A DNA stretch of 64,000 nucleotides from Patescibacteria group bacterium (GCA_022563395.1 JADFNM010000001.1:590342-654341); one strand, 5' to 3'; counted from the stretch's first letter, positions 168 to 47,262 are shown. Notes: generated by a model not told the origin, from the letters alone. A program made the numbers and translations.

Positions 168-728
168 CTATTGTTCCAGTAATTTAAGGATGGCTTGGCT
201 CGCAACGGCAATGCTTGATTTGAGAAGTGCTTTCTCTTCTTGAGAAAAAGGTTTTAAGACAAAAGTCTCAACGTTGCTGGGTTTTCCTTTTGCGGGCTGA
301 ATGCCAACTCGCATTCTGGTAAAGTTCTTTGTTCTTAAAGCTTGGATAACGGAATCAACTCCCTTGTGTCCTGCAGACCCCCTATTTTCAGAAACCTTCA
401 CTTTTCCCAAAGGAATATCAATATCATCATGTATCACGATGAGGTTTTGAATGTTTCCTAAATCTCGTTTAGGAGCTCCTAAACGAGATTTAGGCAAGAG
501 GGATCGCACTGCCTTGCCAGAATTATTCATGAAGGTCTGCGGTTTTGCCAATACTACCTTAGTCTCGTTAAGGATGCCCTCAGAGACCAAAGAAGCATGC
601 TTCTTTGAAAGAGAGAATTCGGGGAAGCCATATTTTTTTTGAAACTCATCCAATACCAAAAAGCCAACGTTGTGACGGGTCTTTGCATACTTCTTTCCTG
701 GGTTTCCCAGTCCTACAATGAGATACAT
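168..728 (-). CDS. pth: Peptidyl-tRNA hydrolase
   Basis: 186 aa. Has N-terminal LIVGLGNPGKKYAKTRHNVGF, then FMNNSGKAV, HDDIDIP and GSAGHKG motifs typical of Pth. Contains an extra segment encoded by the palindrome at 457-494. Confidence 0.93.
   Translation of the reverse strand: MYLIVGLGNPGKKYAKTRHNVGFLVLDEFQKKYGFPEFSLSKKHASLVSEGILNETKVVLAKPQTFMNNSGKAVRSLLPKSRLGAPKRDLGNIQNLIVIHDDIDIPLGKVKVSENRGSAGHKGVDSVIQALRTKNFTRMRVGIQPAKGKPSNVETFVLKPFSQEEKALLKSSIAVASQAILKLLEQ
457..494. repeat. P-family palindrome inserted in-frame inside pth
   Basis: Perfect 38-bp inverted repeat CCTAAATCTCGTTTAGGAG|CTCCTAAACGAGATTTAGG. It shares the TAAACGAGATTTA arm with the intergenic palindromes at 24385, 33165 and 38444. 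It encodes PKSRLGAPKRDLG in pth. Confidence 0.8.
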
Positions 729-13904: not shown

Positions 13905-15212
13905 ATGAAAAAGGCGTGGGTTGTTGCAGTGGACATGGGATACGGGCACCAGCGGGCCGCGTTTACCTTGCGGCGCATTGCTCTTAAAGGGAAAATAATC
14001 ACGGCAAACGATTATCCTGGCATTCCAGAGCTTGACCGCACCCTGTGGCGGGAAACCCGGAGGGTGTATGAGTTTATCTCAAAGTTCAAGAAAATCCCGG
14101 TTTTAGGAGATTTGGTATTTTCCTTAATGGACAAGGTGCAAGAGATAAAGCCCTTTTATCCAAAAGAACGCCCCTTGGAACCCCCAGGACTCCAACTAAG
14201 AACCATCTATGGATTAATCGAGAGAAAGGAGTGGGGCAGGCATTTAATAGAAAAACTGGATGAGCACCCATTACCCATGGTCTGCACCTTTCCGGTTCCA
14301 GCTTTTATGGCAGAGCACTGGAAATACCGGGGAGACATCTATCTTTTGGTGACCGACAGCGATGTTGCCCGTGCTTGGGTCCCCTTCTTTCCCAAAGAGA
14401 CCAAGATTCACTACCTTGCTCCCAGTCAGCTGGTTGCAGAGCGCCTTTTGCAGTATGGAATCTCAAAGAAAAAAATTACTCTGACCGGGTTCCCATTACC
14501 AGAGGAGTTCACAAGCTCTGAGGGATTCACCCAGACAAAAGAGGACTTAAGGAGAAGGTTGGTGCGCTTGGACCAAAAGAGAAAATACATAACCCGGTAT
14601 GCTGATGTGGTGCGTTCATACCTTGGCAAGGTGCCAACAGGCCGCAACGGAGCTCCAGTTATCACATTTGCCGTAGGGGGAGCGGGTGCTCAGCAAGCTC
14701 TGGGCCAGAGCATGATTCACCACCTAGCCCCTCTTTTGAAAAAAAAGAAGCTCAAGTTGCAGATGGTAGCCGCCACCCATAAAGATGCAGCCACAAGATT
14801 CAAGGAAGCTGCAGCAAAAGAGGGATTATCTAAAAAAGAGGTTCAGGTGGTCTTTTTAAAGAGCAAGGACAAGTACTTCAAAAGATTTACTGAGGTTTTA
14901 CGCGCAACGGATATCTTGTGGACCAAGCCTTCCGAACTCTCCTTCTATGCCGCCCTCGGCATTCCTTTGCTTCTTGCCCCTCCCATCGGGTCTCAAGAAG
15001 TGCAGAACCAAAAGTGGCTGGCGCGCTTGGGGGTTGCCATACCACAGCTCAAGGTGGAGCATGCCGATGAATGGATTCCAGACTTTTTAAATCAAGGCTT
15101 GTTTGCAGAAGCTGCCATGCAAGGATTTGTAGAGATGGAGAGAAATGGCGCCAAAAATATTGCGAGTGTCATAGAATCCAATAGTTCCTTAATGAAATTA
15201 AGGAATCCTTAA
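13905..15212 (+). CDS. Putative glycosyltransferase (MGDG-synthase/UgtP-like N-terminus)
   Basis: 435 aa. The N-terminal VAVDMGYGHQRAA resembles the G-x-GH-x-x-A motif of GT28/MGDG-synthase-like enzymes, and a GGAGAQQ segment occurs later. The last 11 codons are encoded by the 65-bp repeat. Confidence 0.45.
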   Translation: MKKAWVVAVDMGYGHQRAAFTLRRIALKGKIITANDYPGIPELDRTLWRETRRVYEFISKFKKIPVLGDLVFSLMDKVQEIKPFYPKERPLEPPGLQLRTIYGLIERKEWGRHLIEKLDEHPLPMVCTFPVPAFMAEHWKYRGDIYLLVTDSDVARAWVPFFPKETKIHYLAPSQLVAERLLQYGISKKKITLTGFPLPEEFTSSEGFTQTKEDLRRRLVRLDQKRKYITRYADVVRSYLGKVPTGRNGAPVITFAVGGAGAQQALGQSMIHHLAPLLKKKKLKLQMVAATHKDAATRFKEAAAKEGLSKKEVQVVFLKSKDKYFKRFTEVLRATDILWTKPSELSFYAALGIPLLLAPPIGSQEVQNQKWLARLGVAIPQLKVEHADEWIPDFLNQGLFAEAAMQGFVEMERNGAKNIASVIESNSSLMKLRNP

Positions 15213-15236
15213 TTTCATTTAAGAGGTATGCGTATG
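15172..15236 (+). repeat. 65-bp direct repeat, copy A (contains a P-family palindrome)
   Basis: TAGAATCCAATAGTTCCTTAATGAAATTAAGGAATCCTTAATTTCATTTAAGAGGTATGCGTATG. Identical to 15901-15965 except for one base. Confidence 0.9.
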
Positions 15237-15941
15237 CAATTTTCTTTTGATTCTTTCAAACGATATATTCAAAAGGTAGAGCGACTTATTCCCGAGGGTT
15301 CAATCTCTAAGAAAGAGTTTGATTTTTTTGTTTCCTTGTTAAAAAAACATGCAGACATACAAGACGTAGGAGAAATTGGGTTTAATGTAGGATTTTCCAG
15401 TTATGCCTTTTTGTCTGCTAGAGATAACATACAGGTTACCTCCTTTGACATCGGAACTCACAAGTATGTGAAGCACGCCAAAGAATTCATCGATGCCCGA
15501 TTCTCAGGGAGACATACGCTCGTGCGGGGAAATTCTCTTAAAACAGTCCCCAGTTTTGTAGAGCACAATCCCAATACAAAGTTTGGCCTTATCTTTATTG
15601 ATGGGGGCCATGATTACCATACGGTTATCACCGATTTGCATAATATGAAGAAGTTGGCGACTCAAGATACGATTGTAGTCATGGATGACCTGACTCCATG
15701 GGAAGGGTGGGGAAGAGGACCGACAAAGGCATGGAGGGAAGCGGTTGGGACGGGACTGATACGAGAAATTGGCGTGTATAAAAACGGGGTGTCCGTCAAG
15801 AGCTTAGAAGGAGGTTCTCCGGATCGAATTTGGGGAGTTGGATGCTATCAAGAGCTAGAGAAACAGGTCTTAACATCATCTCGCAGGCGGAGATATTCTT
15901 TAGAATCCAATAGTTCCTTAATGAAATTAAGGATTCCTTAA
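15228..15941 (+). CDS. Class I SAM-dependent (O-)methyltransferase
   Basis: 237 aa. GEIGFNVGFSS, the FIDGGHDY motif and VVMDD are typical of Methyltransf_24-like enzymes. Start and C-terminus both lie in the 65-bp repeats. Confidence 0.75.
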   Translation: MRMQFSFDSFKRYIQKVERLIPEGSISKKEFDFFVSLLKKHADIQDVGEIGFNVGFSSYAFLSARDNIQVTSFDIGTHKYVKHAKEFIDARFSGRHTLVRGNSLKTVPSFVEHNPNTKFGLIFIDGGHDYHTVITDLHNMKKLATQDTIVVMDDLTPWEGWGRGPTKAWREAVGTGLIREIGVYKNGVSVKSLEGGSPDRIWGVGCYQELEKQVLTSSRRRRYSLESNSSLMKLRIP

Positions 15942-15965
15942 TTTCATTTAAGAGGTATGCGTATG
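15901..15965 (+). repeat. 65-bp direct repeat, copy B
   Basis: Same sequence as 15172-15236 with one A/T difference. Supplies ...ESNSSLMKLRIP-stop to the methyltransferase and ATGCGTATG to the next gene. Confidence 0.9.
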
Positions 15966-16943
15966 GCTAAGAAATTTATTGTTATTACAGGAATTGTTCT
16001 TGTCTTGGTATTTGTGTTTTTGTTTGTGGGAAGCGGCAAGGAGGCAGAGAATATTACCTGGGGGGTGAACTTCTCTCAAAAACAGGCAACGTATTTAAAC
16101 TTAGACTGGCAAGAAGTGTACCTGGCGTTGCTTGAAGACCTGAACGTCAAAAATCTGAGGATTGCTGCCCATTGGAATTTACTGGAGCCAGCAGACCAGC
16201 AGTTTTCCTTTGAAGGTTTAGACTGGCAGATGGACAAGGCAGCATCTTATGGAGCTAAGGTGCTTTTGGCAGTAGGTATGAAAACCCCCAGGTGGCCAGA
16301 GTGTCATATCCCAGAATGGGCAGAGAAACTTCCAAAAGAAGAATTGAGAGCGCAGGTGCTCGAGATGCTTAAAGCAGTAGTTTTGAGGTACAAAGAGCAC
16401 GAAGCTCTCTTTGCCTGGCAGGTGGAGAACGAGCCCCTGCTTCCCTTTGGAGAATGCCCTTTTCGGGATTTCTCGTTCTTGCAAGATGAGGTAGAGCTGG
16501 TACAATCGTTGGATGCAGAGCATGAAGTCCTTACCTCAGACTCAGGTGAGATGTCCTTGTGGTTCAATATGGCTCGCCTGGGAGATAAGGTGGCGGTCAC
16601 CTTGTACCAAAAGGTGTGGTCAGAGGAACTGAACACCTATCTTTCTCTCCCGCTTCCTTCAGTATTTTATGCAAGAAAAGCATGGTTGGTGAAACAGTTG
16701 TTTGGCAAGGAGGTGGTGGTAGGGGAGCTGCAGGCAGAGCCCTGGGTGCAAGGGGAGCTAGAAAACTCCACATTTCAAGAACAAGAAAAGACCATGACTC
16801 TCACGCAGCTCCAAGAGAACATTGCATTTGCAAAAAGTACTGGACTGGATACTTTCTATTTGTGGGGCGGCGAATGGTGGTACTTTATGAAAGAAACCCA
16901 CAACAGAGAAGAGTTTTGGCAAGAGGTAAAGAACATATTTTAG
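15957..16943 (+). CDS. Membrane-anchored glycoside hydrolase (clan GH-A TIM barrel, NEP motif)
   Basis: 328 aa with an N-terminal TM helix. Has NLRIAAHWNLLEP and WQVENEP (acid/base Glu motif of GH5/GH42-like enzymes). Confidence 0.6.
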   Translation: MRMAKKFIVITGIVLVLVFVFLFVGSGKEAENITWGVNFSQKQATYLNLDWQEVYLALLEDLNVKNLRIAAHWNLLEPADQQFSFEGLDWQMDKAASYGAKVLLAVGMKTPRWPECHIPEWAEKLPKEELRAQVLEMLKAVVLRYKEHEALFAWQVENEPLLPFGECPFRDFSFLQDEVELVQSLDAEHEVLTSDSGEMSLWFNMARLGDKVAVTLYQKVWSEELNTYLSLPLPSVFYARKAWLVKQLFGKEVVVGELQAEPWVQGELENSTFQEQEKTMTLTQLQENIAFAKSTGLDTFYLWGGEWWYFMKETHNREEFWQEVKNIF

Positions 16944-16953
16944 AAGTTTATTC

Positions 16954-17550
16954 ATGATTATTGCAAACTTCGTACGCTGGTTGGTAGACAGTATTGGGAG
17001 GAGGCGAGCAAAGCAACTCGTTGGCAAGCTTGAGCATTTCCTTCAAGACGGAGAGAGCGTGCTGGATATTGGAGCTGGAGGAGGATGGAACGGAGAGCGA
17101 ATCCACCAGGAAAAAAAGTGTAACGTCACCCTGCTGGACATTAGTAGTAACCTGAACCGAACTCAGCTCCCTCTTTTGCTGTACGATGGAACCACAATTC
17201 CTTTTGCCGACAATTCTTTTGATACCTCCCTGCTTTTGTTTGTGCTTCATCATTGCCAAGATCCAGCCAAGGTGTTGAAAGAAGCGGTCCGAGTGAGTAA
17301 AAAGCGCGTTATTATCATGGAAGACACTTTTGGTTCTTGGTTCGGACGTATCCTGCTGTGTTGTTATGACACGTTTGAGAATTTCCCTGCTTTATTGGTA
17401 GAACCCTCATACAAGATGAATCTTCCCCATAACTTCAAGAAGGTTCCTGAATGGAAAGAAGCATTTGAACATCTTGGCCTTAAGCTTGTGCACACAGAAC
17501 ACATTCAGCGTTTTCCCATTACTCAGATTCTGTTTATCCTTGAGAAATGA
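16954..17550 (+). CDS. Class I SAM-dependent methyltransferase
   Basis: 198 aa. Has VLDIGAGGG (motif I) and a Methyltransf_11-like layout. Confidence 0.75.
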   Translation: MIIANFVRWLVDSIGRRRAKQLVGKLEHFLQDGESVLDIGAGGGWNGERIHQEKKCNVTLLDISSNLNRTQLPLLLYDGTTIPFADNSFDTSLLLFVLHHCQDPAKVLKEAVRVSKKRVIIMEDTFGSWFGRILLCCYDTFENFPALLVEPSYKMNLPHNFKKVPEWKEAFEHLGLKLVHTEHIQRFPITQILFILEK

Positions 17551-23644: not shown

Positions 23645-24364
23645 ATGCCAAAGCGTATTCTTTTACTCTTGCTTCTGTTTTTGGCGGGAGCCGTTGGAGG
23701 ACTCTGGTCCCAGGCCTTTTTGTTGCCCTCATTGGCAGCAAACCCTGCTTTTCAGAATTGGCAGTTTCTCAAAGACTGGAACGCAAGAACCCAGGTAATA
23801 GCCCCGGTAGAGCAGATTTTTGTGCGTGAGAACGAGGCAGTACAGCGAACCATTCAACAGATAAAAGGTACTGTGGTTGCCTTAAAGAGTGCCGGCGCCA
23901 GACAGGGCTCAGGTCTTGTGTATACCTCAGACGGTTTAATTGTTACCCTCTCTTCTTTAGTTCCGGATGGTTGGAAGGTTACGGTGTATCCTGAAGGGCA
24001 AGATTCCTTGCCAGCAAAGATTCTTAAGCGAGACGTTGCAAGCAACCTTGTGTTATTGAAAATAGAAGATGCAGGGCTTAAAACAGCTGGCTTTGTTAAA
24101 AATGGGGGAGTTGAGCTTGGAGAACGAGTGGTGTTGTTGGCAAAGATTGTTGAGGCGGACGAGAGTACTTTGACTGTGAACGTAGGGGTTGTAAAGAAAA
24201 TAGAAGAGGATTCTTTGGTAACTTCAATTGTAGAACAGGAGAATGTTGACGGAGCCCCTTTGTTTAACGTAGAAGGCAGGGTAGTAGGGCTTGCAGATGC
24301 CGACCTTCAGGGCAATATCTTTGTCATTCCATCCTTAGTTTTAAGGGAATTCCTCGGCCTCTAA
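23645..24364 (+). CDS. Membrane-anchored trypsin/HtrA-like protein lacking the catalytic triad
   Basis: 239 aa. Has an S1C-like fold signature (GSGLVYTSDGLIVT, NLVLLKI, GRVVGLA). The His position has no His, Asp is replaced by Asn (SNLVLLK) and Ser by Ala (VDGAPLF). Confidence 0.65.
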   Translation: MPKRILLLLLLFLAGAVGGLWSQAFLLPSLAANPAFQNWQFLKDWNARTQVIAPVEQIFVRENEAVQRTIQQIKGTVVALKSAGARQGSGLVYTSDGLIVTLSSLVPDGWKVTVYPEGQDSLPAKILKRDVASNLVLLKIEDAGLKTAGFVKNGGVELGERVVLLAKIVEADESTLTVNVGVVKKIEEDSLVTSIVEQENVDGAPLFNVEGRVVGLADADLQGNIFVIPSLVLREFLGL

Positions 24365-24384: not shown

Positions 24385-24424
24385 CTAAACGAGATTTAAG
24401 CAGCACTGCTTAAATCTCGTTTAG
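24385..24424. repeat. P-family palindrome (copy at the left edge of the accessory region)
   Basis: CTAAACGAGATTTAAGCAGCACTGCTTAAATCTCGTTTAG, followed by TTATCCACAGGTTTT..CAGCTCTTTT. About 72 bp is repeated directly at 33165-33236. Confidence 0.85.
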
Positions 24425-24499
24425 TTATCCACAGGTTTTTCTCAACAGCTCTTTTTTAAATCATCTCGCAATCTGTAGACTAGAAAATTAAGATAGTCA

Positions 24500-24564
24500 G
24501 TTCGAATTCTACCCGCGGAGCTCGTAAAGTTGAACCAAAGAATCGCCAAGAAGGCGGTTTTTTG
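24500..24564 (+). repeat. Junction repeat J0 (right-half unit with hairpin and T-tract)
   Basis: GTTCGAATTCTACCCGCGGAGCTCGTAAAGTTGAACCAAAGAATCGCCaagaaGGCGGTTTTTTG. Confidence 0.8.
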
Positions 24565-24626
24565 TTAGACTTAAAATAGAATGAAAAGTCGAATATAATA
24601 GTTATTAAAATAACCAAAAAAATATT

Positions 24627-25231: not shown

Positions 25232-25308
25232 AAACAGGTTCTAACGTCGTCCAGTAGGGGGAGCTCGTAAAGTTGAATCAAAGAATCGTCAAACAGGCGG
25301 TTTTTTGG
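25232..25308 (+). repeat. Junction repeat J1 (full short form)
   Basis: AAACAGGTTCTAACGTCGTCCAGTAGGGGGAGCTCGTAAAGTTGAATCAAAGAATCGTCaaacaGGCGGTTTTTTGG. Confidence 0.85.
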
Positions 25309-25321
25309 TAGAGTAGGAGAC

Positions 25322-26455
25322 ATGAAATACCTTCTATTCGCACTCATTGGAATTGTTGTTCTGGCAGGTGGGTTTTTCTTTTTCCATTTTCAAGGAAACC
25401 CTGGAGAAGAGGAACCCTTATTTCCTCAAAAGGAGGAGTCAATGCCTGGAGAAAGCATTGAAACTGGGGCATCAAAAAAGGAAGTCTTGGAACAAGAGGA
25501 ATCTTCTGCGTCAGAATCAGCCCCTGCAATTTCTCAAGTTGAAGAAGCAACTGAAGAGGTCGTACAAAAAGATTTTAGGATGGCCTTTGTGCTTTTAATT
25601 CGTAGTTCTTCTGATGCAACGCCAGGAAGAATAAATAAAATTAATGAAATCAAAAATGCCTTTCCGAATTCTTTCAAAACGGCAACAAGAAATTTAGCAA
25701 CGATGGATACATCTTCAGACATTGTAATAATGACTGTAGACTCGGGTCCTGACATTACTTCATTTCTATTTGATTGGGGTAAATATCCACAAAAGTTTTA
25801 TGAAGATCACGAAGACAACTTTGACTTTATAAGTTTCTATACAGCATTCGAAGATCAACAATCTCAAGCTCATTTACCAGTAAGCAATGCCATAAAGGGT
25901 ATTGGAAATGTTAACTTAATGAATTCAGCAAGAGGATATGGTTCAGGGGGTAGGCTAAAAGGATTAAATTTTATGGGTGATATTACAATATTCGAAAGAT
26001 TGCAGCTTTTAACTATAGAATCTGCATTAAATGCTTTAAAACATGAAACAGGTCATCAGTGGTGTTGCTATATAATGGACAGTAGAGAAGAAAATGGCAA
26101 TGTGCCATTAATACAGGAGTATGTTCACTGGAACTTCTTTTTGGACTTAAAAAGTATCAATGATGGCTATATTGATCCATTAGGGGGAACTGATTGGATT
26201 GAAGTAGAGAAAAATAAATTCAAAGTATCAGATCGGTTAAGATATATAGAAGCTCGGTATTCACCGCTTACCTTGTACTTAATGGGACTTTTGTCAGCAG
26301 AAGATGTGCCACCAATACCATTAATAAGACCCTTTGATTCAGTTATAGAAAAATCAACCTATCCTCCTAATGAAGTTGATGGGATTAAAGAATTTGTTTC
26401 CATGGAAGACATAATTGCAAGAGAAGGAAAGTGGAGATGTTGTTTTAGTCCTTAA
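25322..26455 (+). CDS. Cassette 2: membrane-anchored putative zinc metalloprotease (HExxH)
   Basis: 377 aa with an N-terminal TM helix, an acidic linker and LKHETGHQW (HExxH). The gene is AT-rich: one 60-nt line (25621-25680) has 17 G+C. Confidence 0.6.
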   Translation: MKYLLFALIGIVVLAGGFFFFHFQGNPGEEEPLFPQKEESMPGESIETGASKKEVLEQEESSASESAPAISQVEEATEEVVQKDFRMAFVLLIRSSSDATPGRINKINEIKNAFPNSFKTATRNLATMDTSSDIVIMTVDSGPDITSFLFDWGKYPQKFYEDHEDNFDFISFYTAFEDQQSQAHLPVSNAIKGIGNVNLMNSARGYGSGGRLKGLNFMGDITIFERLQLLTIESALNALKHETGHQWCCYIMDSREENGNVPLIQEYVHWNFFLDLKSINDGYIDPLGGTDWIEVEKNKFKVSDRLRYIEARYSPLTLYLMGLLSAEDVPPIPLIRPFDSVIEKSTYPPNEVDGIKEFVSMEDIIAREGKWRCCFSP

Positions 26456-26610: not shown

Positions 26611-26684
26611 CAGGTTCTAACAGCCTCCACGCTCCGGAGCTCGTAAAGTTGAGTCAAAGAATCGCCACGATGGCGGTTTTTTGG
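26611..26684 (+). repeat. Junction repeat J2 (full short form)
   Basis: CAGGTTCTAACAGCCTCCACGCTCCGGAGCTCGTAAAGTTGAGTCAAAGAATCGCCacgatGGCGGTTTTTTGG. Degenerate GTAGGGGGG units lie just upstream at about 26535-26580. Confidence 0.8.
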
Positions 26685-26696
26685 TATACTAAAAAT

Positions 26697-27329
26697 ATGA
26701 AGAAGACTATCTTGGTTCTTTTTGGAGGTACAGCTATTATTGTAGGTGGACTCTTTGTGTACGATAGTTATATTGTTGATCAGAGACAGGATAAGGAAGA
26801 AAGGATCCAGGAAAGTTTAACACAAGAGATAGTGAAGGATCTTGGTATTAATATCGCAGACTGGCAAACCTACCGCAACGACGAGTTCGGATTCCAGATG
26901 AAATATCCTGAAGAATGGGAGGTGAAAGAATTTGAGACAAAAATTGATATTGGTATTTTTGGATTGCCTAAACATTATTTCGTTACTGTATCTAAAAGCG
27001 AAAACCCAGAAGGTCTAAATGGTAAACAATATGCTCAACAATGGCTAAGGAGGTTAATTCGTACTCTTCCAGAACAGACAATTATATCAACAAGCACTGA
27101 GGCGATTGAGGTAGGTGGATATGGTGGGTCTATAGTTCGAGATTTTCATATAGAGATAGAAGATGAGCCAAACCTTGATGTGATTTTCGTAGTCTTACCT
27201 GATCAAGAACTAATCTACCAAATCCAATTCCCAATAGGTGAAGGGCAATTAAGCAAGCGTATTCTAGATCCTGAAAAAAATTACAGAACTGCAAATCAAA
27301 TCCTCTCTACGTTTCAGTTTATTAAATAG
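26697..27329 (+). CDS. Cassette 3: secreted/anchored protein with ADWQTYRN-EFGF-KYP-W motif
   Basis: The ATG at 26697 gives MKKTILVLFGGTAIIVGG (TM). The motif ADWQTYRNDEFGFQMKYPEEWEV is shared with cassette 5. The track start at 26544 runs through J2 and is rejected. Confidence 0.7.
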   Translation: MKKTILVLFGGTAIIVGGLFVYDSYIVDQRQDKEERIQESLTQEIVKDLGINIADWQTYRNDEFGFQMKYPEEWEVKEFETKIDIGIFGLPKHYFVTVSKSENPEGLNGKQYAQQWLRRLIRTLPEQTIISTSTEAIEVGGYGGSIVRDFHIEIEDEPNLDVIFVVLPDQELIYQIQFPIGEGQLSKRILDPEKNYRTANQILSTFQFIK

Positions 27330-27742: not shown

Positions 27743-27890
27743 AAAACAGGTTCTAACATCGTCTCGTCAGTAGGACCATTTCTCGATTTAAACCAGCCAT
27801 ATATTCTGAGTCCTCTAAAAGTATAATAAGCTTTGGACTGGGGAGCTCGTAAAGTTGAATCAAAGAATCGTCAAACAGGCGGTTTTTTGG
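27743..27890 (+). repeat. Junction repeat J4 (long form, 96 nt between AAC and GTT)
   Basis: The left part is AAAACAGGTTCTAACATCGTCTCGTCAGTAGG. After a variable centre, the right part GGGGAGCTCGTAAAGTTGAATCAAAGAATCGTCaaacaGGCGGTTTTTTGG is identical to J1. Confidence 0.85.
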
Positions 27891-27902
27891 TAGAATATAT
27901 CC

Positions 27903-29792
27903 ATGCAAAAGAATGATTTTGAACACACTCAACGAGAAACATCCGAGCCCACTTCTTTGGGCTGGAAGAGTGCTTGGAAGGTTACAAAGGAGGTATATAT
28001 ATGGATCATTGGAGTTAATCTCCTTCTCCTATTGTTCAGTGTGGTATTTGGGGGTGTGCTCGATCCATTACTCGCATTGCTTTCTATAGTTTTGCCGATT
28101 GCTGGTATTGTTGTTGGAATCAAAAAATCATTTCCTCAGGCACAGAGAGGATTTCCAATCTTCCGTACAGCCTTTCTTATTGGAGTAATACCACTGGCTG
28201 CATTGTTTTTGTTTGGGCTATGGGCTATTCTCATAAATCTAGATCATCTAAGAACAAATGGTCTAGCAGCAGTTGTCCTATTGGTTGGACAAATTTCTGA
28301 GTTTGCTTCCATAGGACTTTTCTCTTCCTTGGTTTTTGGTACTGTATCCTACTTTGTTCTCTTAAAGAAAAGAATTTCCACGGATACCTCTTTTAAATCT
28401 ACATCTTTAAAATTTCTCGGATTATTTTTTCTCTTACTATTTATTTATATTTTCATAGGAGCAGTGTTTGCTTCTCTTCTTTTCATAACTTCTGCAGCTT
28501 GGTCTAAAGATAGCAAGTCTCAAGAAAATATATCAGAAGTTGAAATTAGCAAGCAAGATGAAACAGCCGATTGGCAAACTTACCGAAACGAAGAGTTTGG
28601 GTTTGAAATAAAATATCCTGATCAATGGGGAATAAGAGAGACAGGCGATGGTTCTTTTGAAATTTATATTCAACAAACAGGTGTAAGTGATATTGGCTCA
28701 ATAGTCTTTACAGGAGATTCAAATATCGATACAGCAATACAAAACCATCTGGCAAGGTATGTTGTTGGAACGCTAATTCAGAGAGAGGAAAATATAAGCT
28801 TGGATGGGAAATATGGAAAGCTTGTATATCAAAATACAGGTGGACGGGATTTGCAGGAGGATGATTTGAGTAAATGGTACTTTGTTGTAAATAATGGACA
28901 AATACTTAAACTTGGTCTTTATTTCCGCCCAAAAGGTTATGACTATGATGAATTATTTGATTTAATGCTCTCCACGTTTCGGTTCATTGAAAATGCGAGG
29001 GTAACTCTACCAACTACTTGTAAAGACGAATTAGATGGGGTTCCTGTTATTACTTCAATCTCACCAGCTTCTGGGTTAGTAGGTACAGAGGTTGAAATCA
29101 GAGGATGTAATCTTGGAGGATTTGAAGGTGACCTCGATGCTGTATTTGTACGGAGCGACGGGGAAGAAATCCCGCTTTATGGTGGAACATGGTATCCAGG
29201 ATATGGGGGAGCAGAACCAGGAAAACTTATCAAGATAATTGTACGGCCATACTGTGAATCTGGCTCTGTAACTGGACGTTATTCTGGAATTACCTCACCA
29301 TGCGAAACAGTAAATGTAACCCCAGGTACGTACAAAGTTTATACAGAAGCTTGGGGGAAGAAGAGCAATGAAGCTCTTTTTATTATTAAGTCTTCAGAGA
29401 ATATGCAAACGATTAAACTTTATTATTATAATGAAGAACATGATCCTAACTTTGATTGTATAGCTGAAGCAGTTATTTCGGTTGAGCGAGAGATTCCTAT
29501 AACAAATACACCCATTCAAGATACAGTCAAACTTCTTATAGAAGGAAAATTAACAGTAGAAGAAAAAGCCGCCGGATTTTCAACAGAGTTTCCTCACCCA
29601 GATTTCGAACTTCTTGGTGCAAACCTTACAGATGATGGAATTTTGACATTAGACTTTCCAGAAGTCTTTGGATTTACTAGTGGAGGATCATGTAGGGTTG
29701 GTATATTGAATGCAGAGATCGAAAAAACAGTTAAACAATTCTCACAAGTTAAAGAAGTTAAGTACACAAACATAGGGATATTTCAGCCATAA
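27903..29792 (+). CDS. Cassette 5: polytopic membrane protein with extracytoplasmic ADWQTYRN-motif, IPT/TIG-like and GerMN-like domains
   Basis: 629 aa with about 5-6 N-terminal TM helices and ADWQTYRNEEFGFEIKYPDQW. PVITSISPASGLVGTEVEIRGCNLGGF is IPT/TIG-like. C-terminal IKLYYYNE...IPITNTPIQDTVKLLIEG is GerMN-like. Confidence 0.7.
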   Translation: MQKNDFEHTQRETSEPTSLGWKSAWKVTKEVYIWIIGVNLLLLLFSVVFGGVLDPLLALLSIVLPIAGIVVGIKKSFPQAQRGFPIFRTAFLIGVIPLAALFLFGLWAILINLDHLRTNGLAAVVLLVGQISEFASIGLFSSLVFGTVSYFVLLKKRISTDTSFKSTSLKFLGLFFLLLFIYIFIGAVFASLLFITSAAWSKDSKSQENISEVEISKQDETADWQTYRNEEFGFEIKYPDQWGIRETGDGSFEIYIQQTGVSDIGSIVFTGDSNIDTAIQNHLARYVVGTLIQREENISLDGKYGKLVYQNTGGRDLQEDDLSKWYFVVNNGQILKLGLYFRPKGYDYDELFDLMLSTFRFIENARVTLPTTCKDELDGVPVITSISPASGLVGTEVEIRGCNLGGFEGDLDAVFVRSDGEEIPLYGGTWYPGYGGAEPGKLIKIIVRPYCESGSVTGRYSGITSPCETVNVTPGTYKVYTEAWGKKSNEALFIIKSSENMQTIKLYYYNEEHDPNFDCIAEAVISVEREIPITNTPIQDTVKLLIEGKLTVEEKAAGFSTEFPHPDFELLGANLTDDGILTLDFPEVFGFTSGGSCRVGILNAEIEKTVKQFSQVKEVKYTNIGIFQP

Positions 29793-29820: not shown

Positions 29821-29981
29821 AAAACAGGTTCTAACTTCGTCCAGTAGCCCCCAGCAATTCCTCCATTTCTTTCATTTCATTCTTAATATTTACCCAATCA
29901 AGAGTTCTAAACTCGTTCAATAGGGGGATTTGATTAGCCTTATTATACTTTTTCAAGAATCGCCACGGAGGCGGTTTTTTG
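29821..29981 (+). repeat. Junction repeat J5 (long form with a tandem degenerate unit)
   Basis: AAAACAGGTTCTAACTTCGTCCAGTAGCCCCC..., then ...AGAGTTCTAAACTCGTTCAATAGGGGGA..., then ...AAGAATCGCCacggaGGCGGTTTTTTG. Confidence 0.75.
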
Positions 29982-29994
29982 ATAAGGTAGAAAT

Positions 29995-31425: not shown

Positions 31426-31500
31426 AAAACAGGTTCTAACGTCGTCCAGTAGGGGGGAGCTCGTAAAAGTGAACCAGAGAATCGCCAAGTAGGCGGTTTT
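31426..31500 (+). repeat. Junction repeat J7 (full short form)
   Basis: AAAACAGGTTCTAACGTCGTCCAGTAGGGGGGAGCTCGTAAAAGTGAACCAGAGAATCGCCaagtaGGCGGTTTT. The TGGTAGAGT box is displaced to 31524-31532. Confidence 0.8.
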
Positions 31501-31569
31501 GAGTTTACACTGAGTACTCGAAGTGGTAGAGTGAAGTAAAGAGTTTCTTAAACCAATATCTACACGTTT

Positions 31570-32534: not shown

Positions 32535-32612
32535 AAAACAGGTTCTAACGTCGTCCAGCAAGGGGAGCTCGTAAAGTTAAGCCAAAGAATCGCCATGCAG
32601 GCGATTTTTTGG
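32535..32612 (+). repeat. Junction repeat J8 (full short form)
   Basis: AAAACAGGTTCTAACGTCGTCCAGCAAGGGGAGCTCGTAAAGTTAAGCCAAAGAATCGCCatgcaGGCGATTTTTTGG. The G-to-A change in the 3' arm keeps the stem paired. Confidence 0.85.
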
Positions 32613-32624
32613 TAGCTTTAAGAT

Positions 32625-33053
32625 ATGCAGACTAAGCTTTTCTTGAAAGAAACGGTTCTTCTTACAAAGTCTTTTGATGCACATCAAGATTGGGAGGTTC
32701 CAATCCCCGGATTTTTTATAATTGCCTCAAAAGATACTACAAAAAAATCAATAGCTGAGTTTACAAGTGAAGAAGTAAAAGAGCTTGGTAGTGTAATCCA
32801 TAGAGTACGGGTGGGGATGCGAGAAGTATTAGACATAAAAGATGTATATCTATTACAGAACGAAGCTTCCAAACACGGGTTTCACGTCTGGATGTTTCCT
32901 CGTTATTCATGGATGGAGAAGTTTGGATGGAGCCCTAAGTCTATAGCTTTGATTATGGAACATGCAAACAAACACATGAAAACAGACGGTAATATTAAAG
33001 AAGTAAAGGATGCGGTTATTCGGGTAAGAGAATATCTTGAAAACAGGTCCTAG
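32625..33053 (+). CDS. Cassette 9: HIT-like fold protein
   Basis: 142 aa. Has a degenerate histidine-triad-like segment HGFHVWMFPR. The stop codon lies inside the J9 left motif (GAAAACAGGTCCTAG). Confidence 0.55.
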   Translation: MQTKLFLKETVLLTKSFDAHQDWEVPIPGFFIIASKDTTKKSIAEFTSEEVKELGSVIHRVRVGMREVLDIKDVYLLQNEASKHGFHVWMFPRYSWMEKFGWSPKSIALIMEHANKHMKTDGNIKEVKDAVIRVREYLENRS

Positions 33054-33164: not shown

Positions 33165-33205
33165 CTTAAACGAGATTTAAGCAGCACTGCTTAAATCTCG
33201 TTTAG
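33165..33205. repeat. P-family palindrome (array / LTD-module boundary)
   Basis: CTTAAACGAGATTTAAGCAGCACTGCTTAAATCTCGTTTAG followed by TTATCCACAGGTTTTCCTCAGCAGCTCTTTT. It is a direct repeat of 24385-24457. Confidence 0.85.
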
Positions 33206-33282
33206 TTATCCACAGGTTTTCCTCAGCAGCTCTTTTCAACCCAACTCAAAACCCTGTACAATAGAAAAGGTGTGTCGAATAC

Positions 33283-33321
33283 CTCCTTAATGAAATTAAG
33301 GATGCTTTAATTTCATTTAGG
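33283..33321. repeat. P-family palindrome upstream of the 33346 gene
   Basis: CTCCTTAATGAAATTAAGGATGCTTTAATTTCATTTAGG. This and the following ~35 nt are repeated at 38498-38552. Confidence 0.8.
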
Positions 33322-33345
33322 CACTATTAACCTTTTGGATTTTGT

Positions 33346-34008
33346 ATGCAAAAACAAGTGCTTATTATAGGGGCAATCCTTCTAGTGATTGTTATTGGAG
33401 GGATTTTTTTGTTGGTGAATCAAACAGAAACTAAATCTCGTTTAGGAGAACCTGAATACAGTACCACCCCAACCCAGTGGAGCCAAGCCGAAGATTACAA
33501 AATAGAAGAAACTCCCACCGGCACCGTTGTGGCGAACGAAAAAGCTGGCTTCAGCTTCAAAGTCCCTGAGGGGTGGAGTGTGGAAGGAGAGGAGGGGATT
33601 ACGGTAGGAGAATATGCACTTGTAATCCTTTCTTCTGAGGCAGAATTTGAAGAAGATCAGTATGGCAATAAAACTACATTTCTCAGAGGATGTGCTATTA
33701 GCTTAGAAACCTTATATCAGAAAGACGAGGTTGTTTCTGTCAAGAATTTAATTGATACTTATAATGAGAAACCCGAGGCAAAACCAGAAGACGAAAGCAT
33801 TATTATTGTTGATAATCAGTCAGCTCTTAGGGCGATTTTCGTACCAGAAGACCTAGAGATTTTAGAAAAAATCGGAGAGTTTATTCAAATACGAGTTCCA
33901 ATTTCTGAAGAAACTCTAATAGGGTTTGGGATAAGGATGAAGCCAGAATACAGATCTGATTGCATTGCTGAATTCGACAGCTTTATCTCAAGTTTCTCCA
34001 TTAACTGA
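33346..34008 (+). CDS. Secreted/anchored hypothetical protein
   Basis: 220 aa with an N-terminal TM helix (VLIIGAILLVIVIGGIFLLV). Contains a half P-family element in-frame (CTAAATCTCGTTTAGGAG encoding KSRLG) at 33431-33448. Confidence 0.65.
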   Translation: MQKQVLIIGAILLVIVIGGIFLLVNQTETKSRLGEPEYSTTPTQWSQAEDYKIEETPTGTVVANEKAGFSFKVPEGWSVEGEEGITVGEYALVILSSEAEFEEDQYGNKTTFLRGCAISLETLYQKDEVVSVKNLIDTYNEKPEAKPEDESIIIVDNQSALRAIFVPEDLEILEKIGEFIQIRVPISEETLIGFGIRMKPEYRSDCIAEFDSFISSFSIN

Positions 34009-34028
34009 GTATAATTTTGTATCTACTA

Positions 34029-37000
34029 ATGGAGAAAGGATCTCTTCTATTCATTGGCATCTCCTTAGTTCTTGGGTTATCTCTCTTTTTCTTAGCTTTT
34101 GCGCAGTATGAAGAGACGTTTGCTTTGTCAGAAAAAGATATTAAGGACGCACTCATACTATCTAAAAAAGATACTACTCTTATCCTGGGCGTTGCGCAAA
34201 GCGAAACCTCTAAACTAGTACCTAATGGTAGAATTTTTGCTTACTCATCTCGAGGACAAGCCGCACTCACACTTTTTAGAAGCTCTTCTAGAAAAGCGGT
34301 ACTGGATTTTCTCCCCGGATTTGCTGCTACCGAGACCGTAAAAGTTGTTATTAAAGCAGCCTCCTCGTTCCAGAAGCTTTCAACAGTAACAGCAAAAGAA
34401 GTTTTAGAAGAAATAGAAAAACAGACGGTTCAAAAAGCGGTAGAAACTGGAGTCAATTGGCTTTTTCAAAATAAGATAAAGATCGGGAGTGGGAGTATAA
34501 CAAAAACGTACCGTAACTATGAAGGCGTTCAGACAGAAGCAATTTTCCAGTACGTAGTGGCTTATGAGAGTATTGATTCAGAGAGCGCTAAGGCGATGGT
34601 GGAGTTTTATTCTCCAGATTTCGTTGATGCCCCAGAGGCAAAGAGTTCCATTTCGGGTTTTATCGGATTTGTCGGTGATTCGCCTCACAGTGGCACCGTA
34701 GATCCTTTTGTGATCCATCTAGAGACTCAAGTTACAAAATCCGCCTTAGGCTGGGTAGTCGATTCGTCTGCTCGAACAAAAATCACGGTCGAGTTTCCCG
34801 ATGAGGTGCCGAGGTTGGAGCTGACAAAGGAATTGCCCTACCCAATAGAAGAACAAAAGATTAATCTCCTCAATAAGCTTACTGCGATAAAGAAAGTTTT
34901 TGATACACTTGGAAATGCTGGAATTGAGATATTTAACATTCTTAGCAAGGGGGTGGGAATGGTACAAGGAACTGCCGAGGATTTTTTTTCCTTTATATCC
35001 AAGGTAATCTCTCTTGGTGGCGCCGGTTTAGTAGACCCTGCTGTTGAATCTCAACTTAACGAGATTAAGGAAGAGTTAGATGTAAAAGAGAATCAAGCGC
35101 AACTTAGTTTAACTAAGGATGAGGGCGATGAGCCTTTCCTTCAACCCCAATCTGAAGTTAACCAAGTAGAATTAAGCGAGACTAAGGAGGATTTGAAACT
35201 ACAGGAAAACCAGGAGGGTGAGGAGAAACTTAGTCTCGTGAAGGAGATATGCGTCATTAATCCTCTGAAATCTCCTGTTTTTGGCGGTGTAATTTTAAGC
35301 GAGATCGCTTGGATGGGTACTGTTGCCTCGGCAAATGATGAGTGGATTAGATTGCAAAATGTTTCCCATCTGCAGAATATCTCAAATGTGTCGGTAAACC
35401 TGCAAGGGTGGCAGCTCATTGATAAAAATGGGGATATTGAGGTGATTTTTGAACAGGACCACCTTATTTCTTCACGGGGAGCATTTCTTTTGGAGCGTAC
35501 CGATGATACCTCGTTGCCGAGTGTTTCAGCAGACTTCATTTACACAGGGGTTCTCAATAATACAAATGAGGCATTGTATCTTTTTGACAGCAACTGTGTG
35601 TTGCGAGACAAGGTGGAAGCTAGTCCTAACTGGCCAGGGGGCGATAATGATATCAAGCAACCTATGGTGCGTCTTTCAGATTTAAGCTGGGAGCAGGCAA
35701 AACTTGATTTAGTCAAGGATGAAGAGGTGCAAGAAAGGGTGTTTGCAGGATGCCTTGATGGACAAATAAATATTAACGCGGTAAATAACGACTTGCTGCA
35801 AGAGATTGTTCAGATTGGAGACGTCACAGCAGAACAAATTATTGAGGCGCGTGTTTTGCAGGCCTTTTATACGATAGACGAGCTTGAGAGAATTTCAGGA
35901 ATTGCAGAGAGAACCGTTGCAAAAATTAAAGAGCAAGGGTGGGCCTGCGCAGCAGACGCGAAGGATGTCAGCTTTAGGTCCTTTCAAAAGCCAGTTTCAT
36001 ACGGAGGAGGGGGAGGTGGCTCTTCAGGCTCTCAATCTTCGCAGGAGAATCAAAGCGAAGAAGCGCAACTTTGTTCTCAAGCAAATATAGGTAGTCCCAG
36101 CAATACTCCCGTTATCATCAACGAGATAGCTTGGATGGGCACTACAAATTCTGCAAATGACGAGTGGATAGAATTAAAGAATGTTAGTGAAGAAGAGGTT
36201 ACACTTGAAGGATGGCAATTACTTGATGCCAGCGGTCAGATTGAAGTTATTTTTACAAACCAGGATATCATTGCTGCATCTGGCTTTTATATTCTGGAGC
36301 GCACAGACGATACTACTCTTTTGGGTATCACAGCAGATACTATCTATGTGGGAAGTTTGGGTAATAGCGACGAATCTTTAAGACTTTTTGATAATACCTG
36401 TACTCTTATCGATGAGATTATAGCTGATCCGGATTGGCCAGGGGGTGATAACGATACGAAATATACTCTTGAAAGAGCAGAAGATTTATCCTGGCAGACC
36501 CATTATGGAGAGGATAATAGCGGGACCCCGGGTGCAGAGAATAGTACGGCTCCAGAGGATCCACCGACGCCCGTTGTCTTGCCCCAAACCGTGGTTATAA
36601 ATGAGGTAGCTTGGATGGGAACAATAGCTTCTGCAAACGAGGAGTGGTTAGAACTTTACAATACCACGGCTGCAGATGTTGATCTCATTGGGTGGAAACT
36701 GCAAGCAGAAGATAGTGCCCCAACCATTGAGTTGATAGGTACTATTGCAGCGAATAGTTACTTTTTGTTAGAGCGGACTGATGATACTACAATTTCTGAC
36801 ATCGCTGCAGACCAGATATATACAGGTGCTCTAGAAAATGAGGGAGAAATTTTGAAACTCTATGATGCAGAAAATAATCTTATTGATATTGTTGATGCGT
36901 CCGCTGGCTGGATTGCAGGAGATAATGCAGTAAAACAGAGTATGGAGCGCATAGATGCGGCAAAAGGGGGGTCTGACCCCCCTAACTGGGCAAATAACAA

Positions 37001-38438
37001 TCTTATTACACATAACGGAGAAGATTCAGATGGGGGATATGTGAATAGCACTCCACGAGCGCAAAACAGTGTTTCTTATTCTTCTACAACAATAATTAAC
37101 ACTGCGTTTCTCCGCTTTAACGAATTTGAAGAAGTCACCCTTGCTTTTCTGGGAAGTCCCTACGAAATGCTAGGGAATATTGAAGTGCCCCCTGGCAAGA
37201 CATTGATTGTGGAACCAGGGGTCACTATTCGCTTGAAAGCTCTAAAGTCCCACGTGATTATTCATGGTACGCTGCAGGCTGTGGGCAGTGAAGATAACGT
37301 TATTACCTTTATTGACGGCGCTGACGGAAATTTTGGGAATTGGTGCGGCTTTTCCTTTTCTTCTACCAGCACTAACTCTCAGTTGGAATACGTGAAGGTA
37401 GAACAATCAGCGAGCGTTACACCCACCTGCGGCACATTAGGAGGAAAGACCTATGCTTTGTTTGTGGATGGGACTGACATCATCATGAAGAATTCTGTCA
37501 TTAATAAAGGTAGTTCTGATCACAAACTCTCTCTTAGAAACTCAAATTCCACTATTGATTCTCTGACGATTACAGGTGATACAACCAAGACAGCGTTCGC
37601 TGCAGGAATATACATAGAAGGAGGAAGTCCGAGCATAACCAACTCTACGATTAAAGATAGCGCCATTGGTATATTTGTGGAGAATAATGTGTCGGACCCT
37701 GCAAGCTTGCCTACTATTACTAATAATACCCTAACGGATAATACCTATGCTATTATTCTGGCGGGAGCCGATGCTGTGGTTTCTGGCAATACGGCAACCG
37801 GCAATACGTATAACGGTATTTGGGTAAAAGATGCCATATCAACTGCAAACGCCGTCTGGGAAGCAGACACCATTCCCTACATTGTAAACCAGCTGGAAAT
37901 AGAAGCAGGAAAAACCCTAACGATACAATCTGGTGTTGTTGTAAAGTTTCTTGCCGCACCCCTAAGTAATACGGAATTTATCGTACACGGCACCCTATTA
38001 GTTCAAGGCACCGCAGCAAACCAGGTGGTATTTACAAGAATTGGGGATGACACAGTAGGAGGAGATACAAACGGAGAAGGGCTTTCTTCTACCGTATACT
38101 GGAAAAGAATGCGCTTTACTTCAACAAGCACTGGTTCTGTTTTGAATCATACGGTTTTGAAATATGGGGGGCATGCGGCTGTGAAATATATAGGGGAGAC
38201 AGAAGGAGATGGTGCTTTGCATGTACAAGGGGAGGTTGATTTGCAGAATGTGACTGTGCAAGATAGCCCTAGGGTTGGCTTGTATTCTTCAGGTATAATA
38301 ACGGGGTCTGGTATAACGCTTGTAGATAATGCATATGGCCTTAACCTTGTAATGGCAGAGTGCCCGGTGCTTACCAATGTAACCATTTCTGGTTCTGGAG
38401 AAGATTTCTACCCTGGTTCTTTGGAGTGCCAATTTTGA
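34029..38438 (+). CDS. Giant secreted protein: three lamin-tail (LTD) domains, ComEA-like helix-hairpin-helix region and C-terminal right-handed beta-helix
   Basis: The ATG at 34029 gives MEKGSLLFIGISLVLGLSLFFLAF. LTD signature [IL]xEIAWMGT..SANDEW[IL]EL.N......L.GW.L occurs at about 35289, 36111 and 36591. An HhH segment is at about 35770-35940 (NINAVNNDLLQEIVQIGDVTAEQIIEAR...ISGIAERTVAKIKEQG). PbH1-like repeats span about 37090-38438. Confidence 0.8.
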   Translation: MEKGSLLFIGISLVLGLSLFFLAFAQYEETFALSEKDIKDALILSKKDTTLILGVAQSETSKLVPNGRIFAYSSRGQAALTLFRSSSRKAVLDFLPGFAATETVKVVIKAASSFQKLSTVTAKEVLEEIEKQTVQKAVETGVNWLFQNKIKIGSGSITKTYRNYEGVQTEAIFQYVVAYESIDSESAKAMVEFYSPDFVDAPEAKSSISGFIGFVGDSPHSGTVDPFVIHLETQVTKSALGWVVDSSARTKITVEFPDEVPRLELTKELPYPIEEQKINLLNKLTAIKKVFDTLGNAGIEIFNILSKGVGMVQGTAEDFFSFISKVISLGGAGLVDPAVESQLNEIKEELDVKENQAQLSLTKDEGDEPFLQPQSEVNQVELSETKEDLKLQENQEGEEKLSLVKEICVINPLKSPVFGGVILSEIAWMGTVASANDEWIRLQNVSHLQNISNVSVNLQGWQLIDKNGDIEVIFEQDHLISSRGAFLLERTDDTSLPSVSADFIYTGVLNNTNEALYLFDSNCVLRDKVEASPNWPGGDNDIKQPMVRLSDLSWEQAKLDLVKDEEVQERVFAGCLDGQININAVNNDLLQEIVQIGDVTAEQIIEARVLQAFYTIDELERISGIAERTVAKIKEQGWACAADAKDVSFRSFQKPVSYGGGGGGSSGSQSSQENQSEEAQLCSQANIGSPSNTPVIINEIAWMGTTNSANDEWIELKNVSEEEVTLEGWQLLDASGQIEVIFTNQDIIAASGFYILERTDDTTLLGITADTIYVGSLGNSDESLRLFDNTCTLIDEIIADPDWPGGDNDTKYTLERAEDLSWQTHYGEDNSGTPGAENSTAPEDPPTPVVLPQTVVINEVAWMGTIASANEEWLELYNTTAADVDLIGWKLQAEDSAPTIELIGTIAANSYFLLERTDDTTISDIAADQIYTGALENEGEILKLYDAENNLIDIVDASAGWIAGDNAVKQSMERIDAAKGGSDPPNWANNNLITHNGEDSDGGYVNSTPRAQNSVSYSSTTIINTAFLRFNEFEEVTLAFLGSPYEMLGNIEVPPGKTLIVEPGVTIRLKALKSHVIIHGTLQAVGSEDNVITFIDGADGNFGNWCGFSFSSTSTNSQLEYVKVEQSASVTPTCGTLGGKTYALFVDGTDIIMKNSVINKGSSDHKLSLRNSNSTIDSLTITGDTTKTAFAAGIYIEGGSPSITNSTIKDSAIGIFVENNVSDPASLPTITNNTLTDNTYAIILAGADAVVSGNTATGNTYNGIWVKDAISTANAVWEADTIPYIVNQLEIEAGKTLTIQSGVVVKFLAAPLSNTEFIVHGTLLVQGTAANQVVFTRIGDDTVGGDTNGEGLSSTVYWKRMRFTSTSTGSVLNHTVLKYGGHAAVKYIGETEGDGALHVQGEVDLQNVTVQDSPRVGLYSSGIITGSGITLVDNAYGLNLVMAECPVLTNVTISGSGEDFYPGSLECQF

Positions 38439-38443
38439 TTCTG

Positions 38444-38484
38444 CTTAAACGAGATTTAAGCAACATTGCTTAAATCTCGTTTAG
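38444..38484. repeat. P-family palindrome (right boundary of LTD module)
   Basis: CTTAAACGAGATTTAAGCAACATTGCTTAAATCTCGTTTAG, starting 6 nt after the stop of the giant gene. Confidence 0.85.
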
Positions 38485-38497
38485 TTTCTCATAACTA

Positions 38498-38525
38498 GAT
38501 TAAGGAATCCTTAATTTCATTTAGG
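38498..38525. repeat. P-family element plus duplicated upstream region of the 33346 gene
   Basis: GATTAAGGAATCCTTAATTTCATTTAGG, then CACCATTAACC...TTTTGCATGCAAAAA. This parallels 33296-33357, including the ATG-CAA-AAA start. Confidence 0.75.
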
Positions 38526-40576: not shown

Positions 40577-40590
40577 ATCTCGTTTAAGCA
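40570..40590. repeat. P-family half element/hairpin across the sigma-factor stop codon
   Basis: TGCTTAAATCTCGTTTAAGCA (stem TGCTTAAA/TTTAAGCA). Confidence 0.6.
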
Positions 40591-40652
40591 ACAGGCTCGG
40601 GCGGCTATGGCCGGTAGTGTAACAAATAGGCGTATTTTACGTCATAATATAA

Positions 40653-47221: not shown

Positions 47222-47259
47222 TTTCGTTTAAGCATTCTTGCCTAAATGAAATTAAGGAG
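47214..47259. repeat. P-family palindrome across the stop codon of the 45518 gene (terminator-like)
   Basis: CTCCTTAATTTCGTTTAAGC-attctt-GCCTAAATGAAATTAAGGAG. The arm sequence is intermediate between the two P-family variants. Confidence 0.8.
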
Positions 47260-47262
47260 ATA

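Follow-up and report, generated by a model that had tools for sequence, protein, structure and literature searches.

The stretch of DNA considered here, which I will call the window, is 64,000 nucleotides from a Patescibacteria group bacterium (GCA_022563395.1, JADFNM010000001.1:590342-654341), and the feature that concerns us is a perfect 38-bp palindrome at positions 457-494 (CCTAAATCTCGTTTAGGAG|CTCCTAAACGAGATTTAGG) lying inside pth, the gene for peptidyl-tRNA hydrolase (168-728, minus strand). The host gene is a Pth1: the open reading frame is intact and encodes 186 amino acids (containing SGKAVRSLLPKSRLGAPKRDLGNIQNLIVIHDDID) with a PF01195 domain, the product agrees at 100% identity with an aminoacyl-tRNA hydrolase deposited for Patescibacteria, solved Pth structures match it at E = 2e-33, its AlphaFold model reaches a TM-score of 0.86 to 7y52, and the conserved Pth columns are present, the catalytic histidine (H19 in this protein) included. 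The palindrome, which a first-pass annotation of the sequence had pointed out, is exact, since the 19-mer at 457-475 on the plus strand equals that at 476-494 on the minus strand with 0 mismatches, and the minus strand reads through it as PKSRLGAPKRDLG. Symmetry continues imperfectly out to 454-497 (TTGCC...GGaAA), giving 22-nt arms that are 95% complementary with one mismatch, and in a relative (L081) these outer ends are fully symmetric (TTGCC...GGCAA). The architecture is nested: CCTAAA-TCTCG-TTTAGG and CCTAAA-CGAGA-TTTAGG, two inverted 17-nt mini-hairpins of the form CCTAAA-N5-TTTAGG, flank a central AGCT, and because each arm is itself a hairpin the element has two alternative folds, either one 17-bp hairpin or two small ones. 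Folded as RNA, the element forms a 17-bp stem at -26.8 kcal/mol (z = -4.7). Simple arithmetic puts the chance expectation for a perfect 19+19 palindrome in 64 kb at about 2e-7, and the arm 19-mer finds 5 window matches at up to 3 mismatches where shuffles predict 0.01. The same pth sequence occurs in three further assemblies from different samples (four independent assemblies in all), and therefore the palindrome is not an assembly artefact.

Within the protein the insert corresponds to residues 79-91, between a helix (67-77) and a strand (96-106), and when mapped onto the AlphaFold model, as the annotation had proposed, it forms a low-confidence loop of an otherwise confident structure (mean pLDDT 91.4, with residues 81-90 averaging 54), which supports placing it in a predicted surface loop that is structurally permissive. 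The segment from SGKAV to HDD is 25 amino acids long here and 17 in most orthologues, the length that the annotation gives for the Escherichia coli enzyme, and at this very point the window protein exceeds the solved Pth structures by 8 residues. The accompanying idea that the excess roughly equals the length of the element is only loosely right: the excess is 8 aa (24 nt) against the 17-aa loops and 12 aa (36 nt) against the closest alleles lacking the insert, which have 13-aa loops. The frame in which the element is read has a simple basis, for frame 2 of the unit contains TAG and frame 3 contains TAA, leaving the PKxxLG frame alone open, and because the element is palindromic this single open frame exists in either orientation; the PKxxLG frame is thus constant in every coding copy because the other two hold stops.

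The palindrome is supported as one copy of a dispersed repeat family. Its unit, a 17-nt hairpin with the consensus C(C/T)TA(A/G)N-N5-N(C/T)TA(G/A)G that as a rule is joined to its reverse complement, is present 10 times in the window, spread over 7 sites (0.01 chance matches are expected for the 19-mer arm), and a 13-nt core, TAAATCTCGTTTA, is identical at these 7 unrelated sites; none of the repeat sites lies in the next 10 kb beyond the window, and the copy number covers about 74 kb of the 671-kb genome. Three of the sites are intergenic dimers with the units in the opposite order to that in pth: 24385-24424 (CTAAACGAGATTTAAGCAG-CA-CTGCTTAAATCTCGTTTAG, family D5), 20 nt past the stop codon of the gene at 23645-24364; 33167-33204, a dimer of the TCTCG-type unit between the co-directional genes 32625-33053 and 33346-34008 and 113 nt past the stop of the upstream one; and 38446-38483, again of the TCTCG type, 7 nt past the stop of the gene at 34017-38438 and called terminator-like by a simple scan. 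The remaining three are single units on the plus strand. One, at 33430-33448, bears out the earlier observation that half of the element recurs in an unrelated gene in the same frame: it differs from the arm by 1 mismatch in 19, is exact from 33431, and is read as TKSRLGE in the ORF 33346-34008, in a linker after an N-terminal membrane helix. A diverged unit (CCTAAGTCTCGCTTAAG, 39785-39801) is read as PKSRLS in a linker before the HTH domain of the ORF 39341-39985, and a third (CTTAAATCTCGTTTAAG, 40572-40588) belongs to a TCTCG-type hairpin (40569-40591) that carries in its stem the TAA terminating an ECF sigma-factor gene (40073-40576). The TCTCG/CGAGA loop is therefore common, within the window, to pth, the intergenic dimers and three genes, and it appears again in another genome (L098) as a perfect CGAGA/TCTCG dimer between pth and lepB; it behaves like a master sequence surrounded by a cloud of variants.

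Other genomes show the same scatter. Orthologues of the ORF 33346-34008 carry TK(SR/FD/LG/PD/SD/PG)LG at the same place, carry it duplicated once, or lack it, and a tblastn search for such orthologues against all the collected loci gave no matches. A 33-kb contig has both a pth without the insert and the second gene without the unit, and a 168-kb contig, probably from a single genome, has CTTAG-type units in pth and TKSRLG in the second gene, and hence the variants within one genome are not always uniform. In L082 (2543-2580; also in L083) the variant seen in the L082 pth cassette recurs as a double-hairpin palindrome close to the N-terminus of a gene of the PGA_cap family, where it is read in frame as PKLSLGETKLSLG; it is absent from all 3 of the orthologues compared.

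The Pth loop itself is hypervariable across 120 Pth relatives. Beside the ordinary bacterial type of 17 aa (xxFYKIxxxN) there are short alleles of 13-14 aa and three expanded classes, namely class 1 (19-28 aa, of the PKxxLG(x)PKxxL type), class 2 (20-24 aa, KLSxxKLxL..KEL) and class 3 (24 aa, RNLVSKRLETKFLSKH). These alleles come in part from a Pth scan of genome contigs, whose 80 loci, with only one close relative among them, served as a negative control for palindromes, and in part from a degenerate pattern anchored in pth and run over metagenome contigs, which yielded 5 loci with new allele classes among them. Every one of the 13 expanded alleles for which DNA was available in the close clade is a long palindrome with nested hairpin arms (about 12 distinct sequences, arms of 16-26 nt), and in a comparison of 65 pth DNAs the best palindromic arms measure 5-11 nt in ordinary 17-aa loops and 18-26 nt in the expanded loops of this clade. 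The alignment with orthologues that had been suggested thus finds close relatives of both kinds, with and without the insert: the 17-aa loops are non-palindromic and the expanded loops of the close clade are all palindromic. The alleles are varied, with TCTCG/CGAGA loops in the window and L081, CCTAAACTCGGTTTAGG-CACG-CCTAAACCGAGTTTAG in L094, CCTAAGCTTAGCTTAGG... in L082 and L084, CCGGG/CCTCG and CGAGG/CCTCG loops in L092 and L096, CCTAGACTTGGTCTAGG-AGCT-CCTAGACCAAGTCTAGG in L093, class 2 cassettes with arms of 19-23 nt in L088, L089, L095 and L097, and a perfect 50-bp palindrome in L091. The loop is also an indel hotspot in more distant lineages (P0070, P0078, P0073, P0093, P0099; L061, L062, L071), where loops of 27-36 aa and, in one case, a tandem duplication (ITRPGRVV-ITRPGRVV) are found; the three of these with DNA examined (L061, L062 and L071) have no long palindrome.

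One might suppose from the recurrence of a PKxxLG or TKxxLG signature in at least three proteins that the peptide is what selection sees, a basic loop that could touch tRNA and be useful to Pth or to other proteins, the DNA palindrome being its by-product. However, the class 2 and class 3 alleles encode unrelated peptides (KLSFPKLNL, RNLVSKRLETKFLSKH) and are equally palindromic, identical units stand in non-coding DNA, the insert is predicted to be disordered, and the stop codons in the other two frames fully explain why the frame is constant; an explanation at the level of the peptide is exceedingly improbable, being essentially excluded by the non-coding copies and by the class 2 and class 3 alleles.

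How the arms stay complementary can be read from the alleles. When eight class 1 alleles were aligned and scored against the long-hairpin model, 97% of the cells paired, 8 of the 17 arm pairs had changed on both sides, and a single G-U cell stood against 22 double changes, values reached in 0 of 500 shuffles and lost when the model was slid along the sequence as a control; the stems of the small hairpins likewise covary. The stability of the RNA hairpin given above (-26.8 kcal/mol, z = -4.7) and the retention of palindromy over some 12 alleles at one site would be expected of a functional element of the pth mRNA, such as a cleavage site for RNase III or a pause in translation by which the level of Pth is tuned, but G-U intermediates are nearly lacking, which favours a constraint or a copying process at the level of DNA over selection on RNA structure. 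Considering as well that many close relatives lack the hairpin (those with 13- or 17-aa loops), that the element also sits in unrelated genes and in intergenic DNA, and that no Rfam family matches it, I regard a role in the messenger as very improbable. The Rfam scan of the whole window at gathering thresholds returned no hits, and permissive scans of the hairpins gave only miRNA-precursor look-alikes far below threshold.

A second palindrome sub-family, TCCTTAATGAAATTAAGGA[A/T]TCCTTAATTTCATTTAAG, is made of CCTTAA-N5-TTAAGG dimers and always stands just 5' of a promoter or a start codon. Its sites are 852-890, 15181-15229, 15910-15958, 33278-33328, 38492-38525 and 47211-47262, of which those ending at 15229 and 15958 overlap a ribosome-binding site. 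The first of them (TCCTTAG-caagac-TAAGGA T TCCTTAA-tttccg-TTAAGG, family D4) is a double hairpin that separates the divergent pth and lepB, and relatives have 0, 1 or 2 units, with differing loops, in the orthologous spacer. Units of these kinds occur across the clade downstream of genes, next to promoters and, now and then, within coding sequence. Such positions invite the reading that the units are duplex DNA sites for a dimeric regulator or a nucleoid protein, with TCCTTAA/TTAAGGA or CCTAAA/TTTAGG as half-sites and the apparent loops as spacers, the pth copy being an intragenic operator or a fortuitous site; the conservation of the stems and variability of the loops, the placement of five CCTTAA sites (852-890, 15181-15229, 15910-15958, 33278-33328 and 47211-47262) just upstream of promoters or start codons, and the operator-like look of their centre, ATTAAGGAWTCCTTAAT, all agree with it. 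Yet spacers need not be mutual reverse complements, and the loops covary between the arms in nearly every allele; stem positions 5-6 covary too instead of being fixed, locations after stop codons and within at least three coding regions are odd for operators, and no regulator has been identified, which makes this reading rather improbable in my judgement.

Several other features of the window and of its relatives deserve mention in their own right. A module of about 90 nt is repeated 5' of six or seven consecutive plus-strand genes (24492-24584, 25235-25327, 26611-26703, 27817-27909, 29934-29983, 31427-31505 and 32539-32631); it reads AAACAGGTTCTAACGTCGTCC...GGAGCTCGTAAAGTTGAAYCAAAGAATCGCCnnnnnGGCGGTTTTTTGG with an ATG some 15 nt later, thereby placing a terminator-like hairpin and T-run right before each start codon, has no Rfam match, and could be the shared promoter or leader (perhaps an attenuator) of a regulon. 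A palindrome with 23-nt arms (TCCATATATATGCGTCTCATCTA / TAGATGAGACATATATATATGGA) at 47449-47495 covers the predicted ATG of a murB-like gene (47476-48438), whose true start may lie downstream, or else the palindrome may be a regulatory site. Between 49012 and 53367 there are three paralogous spermidine-synthase genes, two for AdoMet decarboxylase and one of the arginase family (agmatinase-like), a polyamine module that is unusually redundant for a small genome. A small gene of unknown function with no Pfam match lies between pth and mfd (L099:10628-11191, 187 aa, which is just past the left end of the window, and L081:4956-5408, 150 aa); it is confined to the two genomes with the TCTCG-type pth cassette and is absent in L082, L084 and L086. 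In L084, about 5 kb from pth, a reverse transcriptase (RVT_1) adjoins a bAvd-like gene (15866-17246), a pair that looks like a diversity-generating retroelement and appears unrelated to the palindrome.

The pth site is far from static. In L096 and L097 a cassette of about 70 nt is wholly different, class 1 in the former and class 2 in the latter, although the DNA to either side of it matches at 100% over about 200 nt, with a few adjacent codons differing synonymously, and L094 and L098 differ in the same manner (a 19-aa loop versus one of 13 aa). L092 has a 15-nt tandem duplication in its loop, and the 19-aa alleles, which stop at a CTTAG direct repeat, look like deletions between such repeats. 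Together the duplication, the CTTAG-repeat deletions and the swaps between strain pairs therefore indicate that the site changes by slippage and by replacement of tracts of about 70 nt. Such changes would be expected of a palindrome that causes breaks, with a diverged copy serving for their repair, and since these bacteria encode ComEC, incoming DNA would be a plausible donor. The state of the loop is patchy on a neighbour-joining Pth tree, which is poorly resolved and was used for patchiness only. The annotation had spoken of a mobile palindrome that invaded coding sequence without disrupting the frame, and of this the in-frame copy of a dispersed repeat stands, with other genes affected as well, whereas a single invasion does not, for the pth loop behaves as a long-lived hypervariable locus, and the mobility of the element is an inference. 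The same codon boundary is occupied in many lineages, which fits vertical descent with change in situ at least as well as repeated insertion; no clean empty site was found, the closest alleles without the insert differing also in adjacent codons, and no target-site duplication is visible at any copy.

These observations lend some credit to a scheme that dispenses with mobility altogether, in which a quasi-palindrome formed a single time in the ancestral pth loop and has kept being re-perfected and reshaped by template switching and slippage, and the copies elsewhere arose independently as the same mutational process acted on similar AT-rich motifs. All class 1 alleles share one codon boundary, their covariation is strictly Watson-Crick, slippage products exist, the pth-lepB intergenic units keep a fixed place while their loops change, and the perfecting of quasi-palindromes by template switching is well established (PMC7202029). 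Against this, the identical 13-nt core at 7 unrelated sites in 64 kb, and the same loop at unrelated sites of other genomes, require copying between sites, and no simple template switch interconverts class 1 and class 2 cassettes in otherwise identical genes; evolution wholly in place is thus unlikely.

Turning to systems already described, the closest resemblance is to the REPs of Proteobacteria and other phyla and their paired forms (REPIN, BIME), short stem-loop palindromes (20-40 bp) with hairpin units of about 17-20 nt that commonly occur as inverted pairs, to be compared with the 17-nt units and 38-40 bp dimers of the window, where each dimer is a nested palindrome because each arm is a near-perfect hairpin. 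REPs have many copies per genome, mainly 3' of ORFs between co-directional or convergent genes, a pattern that the window may share with its 7 sites in 64 kb, the three intergenic inverted dimers lying 7-113 nt after co-directional stops. As with REPs, the sequence variant is specific to each lineage; some REPs overlap gene ends and provide stop codons, and a minority are translated within ORFs (PMC3733652), as units of the present family are too. The differences are equally clear. The GTAG or CGTC tag that defines classical REPs (PMC3733652) is absent from the unit ends at the pth copy, the three intergenic dimers, 33430 and 40572, the stems are AT-rich (CCTAAA/TTTAGG), the family resides in a CPR bacterium whose genome measures about 0.67 Mb, many alternative palindromes occupy one coding site across a clade, and no RAYT gene, the single-copy Y1 transposase that the repeats flank in REPIN-RAYT systems, was seen in the window: a Pfam scan of some 50 window proteins (about 11% of the genome visible) and of the small pth neighbour found no transposase domain (RAYT/IS200-like, Y1_Tnp or other), nor an HUH or recombinase domain.

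An identification with the Rickettsia palindromic elements (RPEs), to which the element was first likened, does not hold. The likeness is real in that a palindromic repeat sits in frame in a housekeeping gene of a reduced genome and adds a peptide tolerated at the surface, the ORF being intact and relatives without the insert existing. RPEs are, however, about 150 bp long (PMC10969869) and fall into ten families, each with a conserved peptide of some 40-50 aa, and the pth element, at 38-44 bp and 13 aa with a sequence that varies between strains, is excluded on size, a member of the described families having about 100-150 bp, and has the look of a REP dimer. Quasi-palindrome hotspots in E. coli and yeast, where intramolecular template switching drives the arms to exact complementarity (PMC7202029), share the perfected inverted repeats and the character of mutational hotspots, but these are isolated events at arbitrary sites and not a dispersed family with a shared core. 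PARCELs, in Mollicutes and others, are similarly palindromic coding DNA readable on either strand in reduced genomes (PMC2996958), although they are longer tandem intragenic repeats in surface proteins, and here we have a single short dimer in a cytoplasmic enzyme belonging to a mainly non-coding family. Other candidates were set aside more readily. MITEs measure 70-300 bp, end in inverted repeats and are flanked by target-site duplications, and the present element has 38-44 bp, flanks that are inverted and not direct (TTG / AAA in the window, TTG / CAA in L081) and no direct duplication at the intergenic copies; DNA uptake sequences (USS/DUS) recur about once per kb, and k-mer analysis found the core 5-6 times in 64 kb and no dominant 9-10-mer; TIGR-Tas arrays were rejected because the dimers are isolated and do not form tandem arrays; and in viral contigs the generic double-unit pattern matched only non-palindromic coding repeats of the PSxxLG type, the 14-mer core giving single matches at chance level.

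The explanation I favour, with a probability of roughly 55%, is that the palindrome is a nested repeat of the REP/REPIN kind that is tolerated in frame, with arms kept complementary by hairpin-templated copying, at a site that is unstable and recombinogenic. The element would thereby belong to a family of short nested-hairpin repeats, specific to this lineage and REP/REPIN-like in form, and its survival in pth would have two reasons, namely that this copy uses the one stop-free frame of the unit and that it landed in a surface loop between helix and strand that is predicted to be disordered, so that the insert would be a tolerated passenger and not a functional part of the enzyme. Complementarity of the arms would be upheld by a process at the DNA level, likely hairpin-templated copying or template switching, or alternatively by re-copying from other members of the family. 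Because a palindrome is unstable, the site would become a hotspot for slippage (the 15-nt duplication and deletions of 12-18 nt) and for short-tract recombination, and these would together yield the many alleles of the relatives. A bolder proposition, which I hold to be similarly improbable to the binding-site reading, is that the cassettes are not passive at all. They could belong to a dedicated hairpin-templated system of CPR bacteria, in the form either of a new, minute kind of non-autonomous mobile DNA, moved by an enzyme yet to be recognised, or of a break-and-repair mechanism aimed at palindromes, and such a system, if true, would rewrite the loop of an essential enzyme and the linkers of other proteins and exchange alleles between strains; or they could be functional structured DNA or RNA sites, in which case the hairpins would control pth and neighbouring genes.

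CPR/Patescibacteria genomes are tiny and thought to be repeat-poor, and the literature searched yielded no description of such repeats in these genomes or in pth. What is already known is the principle that palindromic repeats can be tolerated in coding loops: in-frame RPEs are documented in Rickettsia and in-frame or stop-providing REPs in other phyla (PMC3733652; PMC10969869), and therefore the kind of element is familiar. What is new is the family, its nested architecture and, above all, a palindromic cassette with many alleles in an essential gene. A REP-like family thus extends into a gene for translation rescue, and the locus offers a natural experiment on how palindromes are maintained, on how far an essential enzyme tolerates insertion, and on short conversion tracts between uncultured strains. 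The PKxxLG/KLSxxKL loop is usable as a strain-level marker, and it also carries a caution for those who work with metagenome-assembled genomes, where hypervariable protein segments can be driven by DNA structure.
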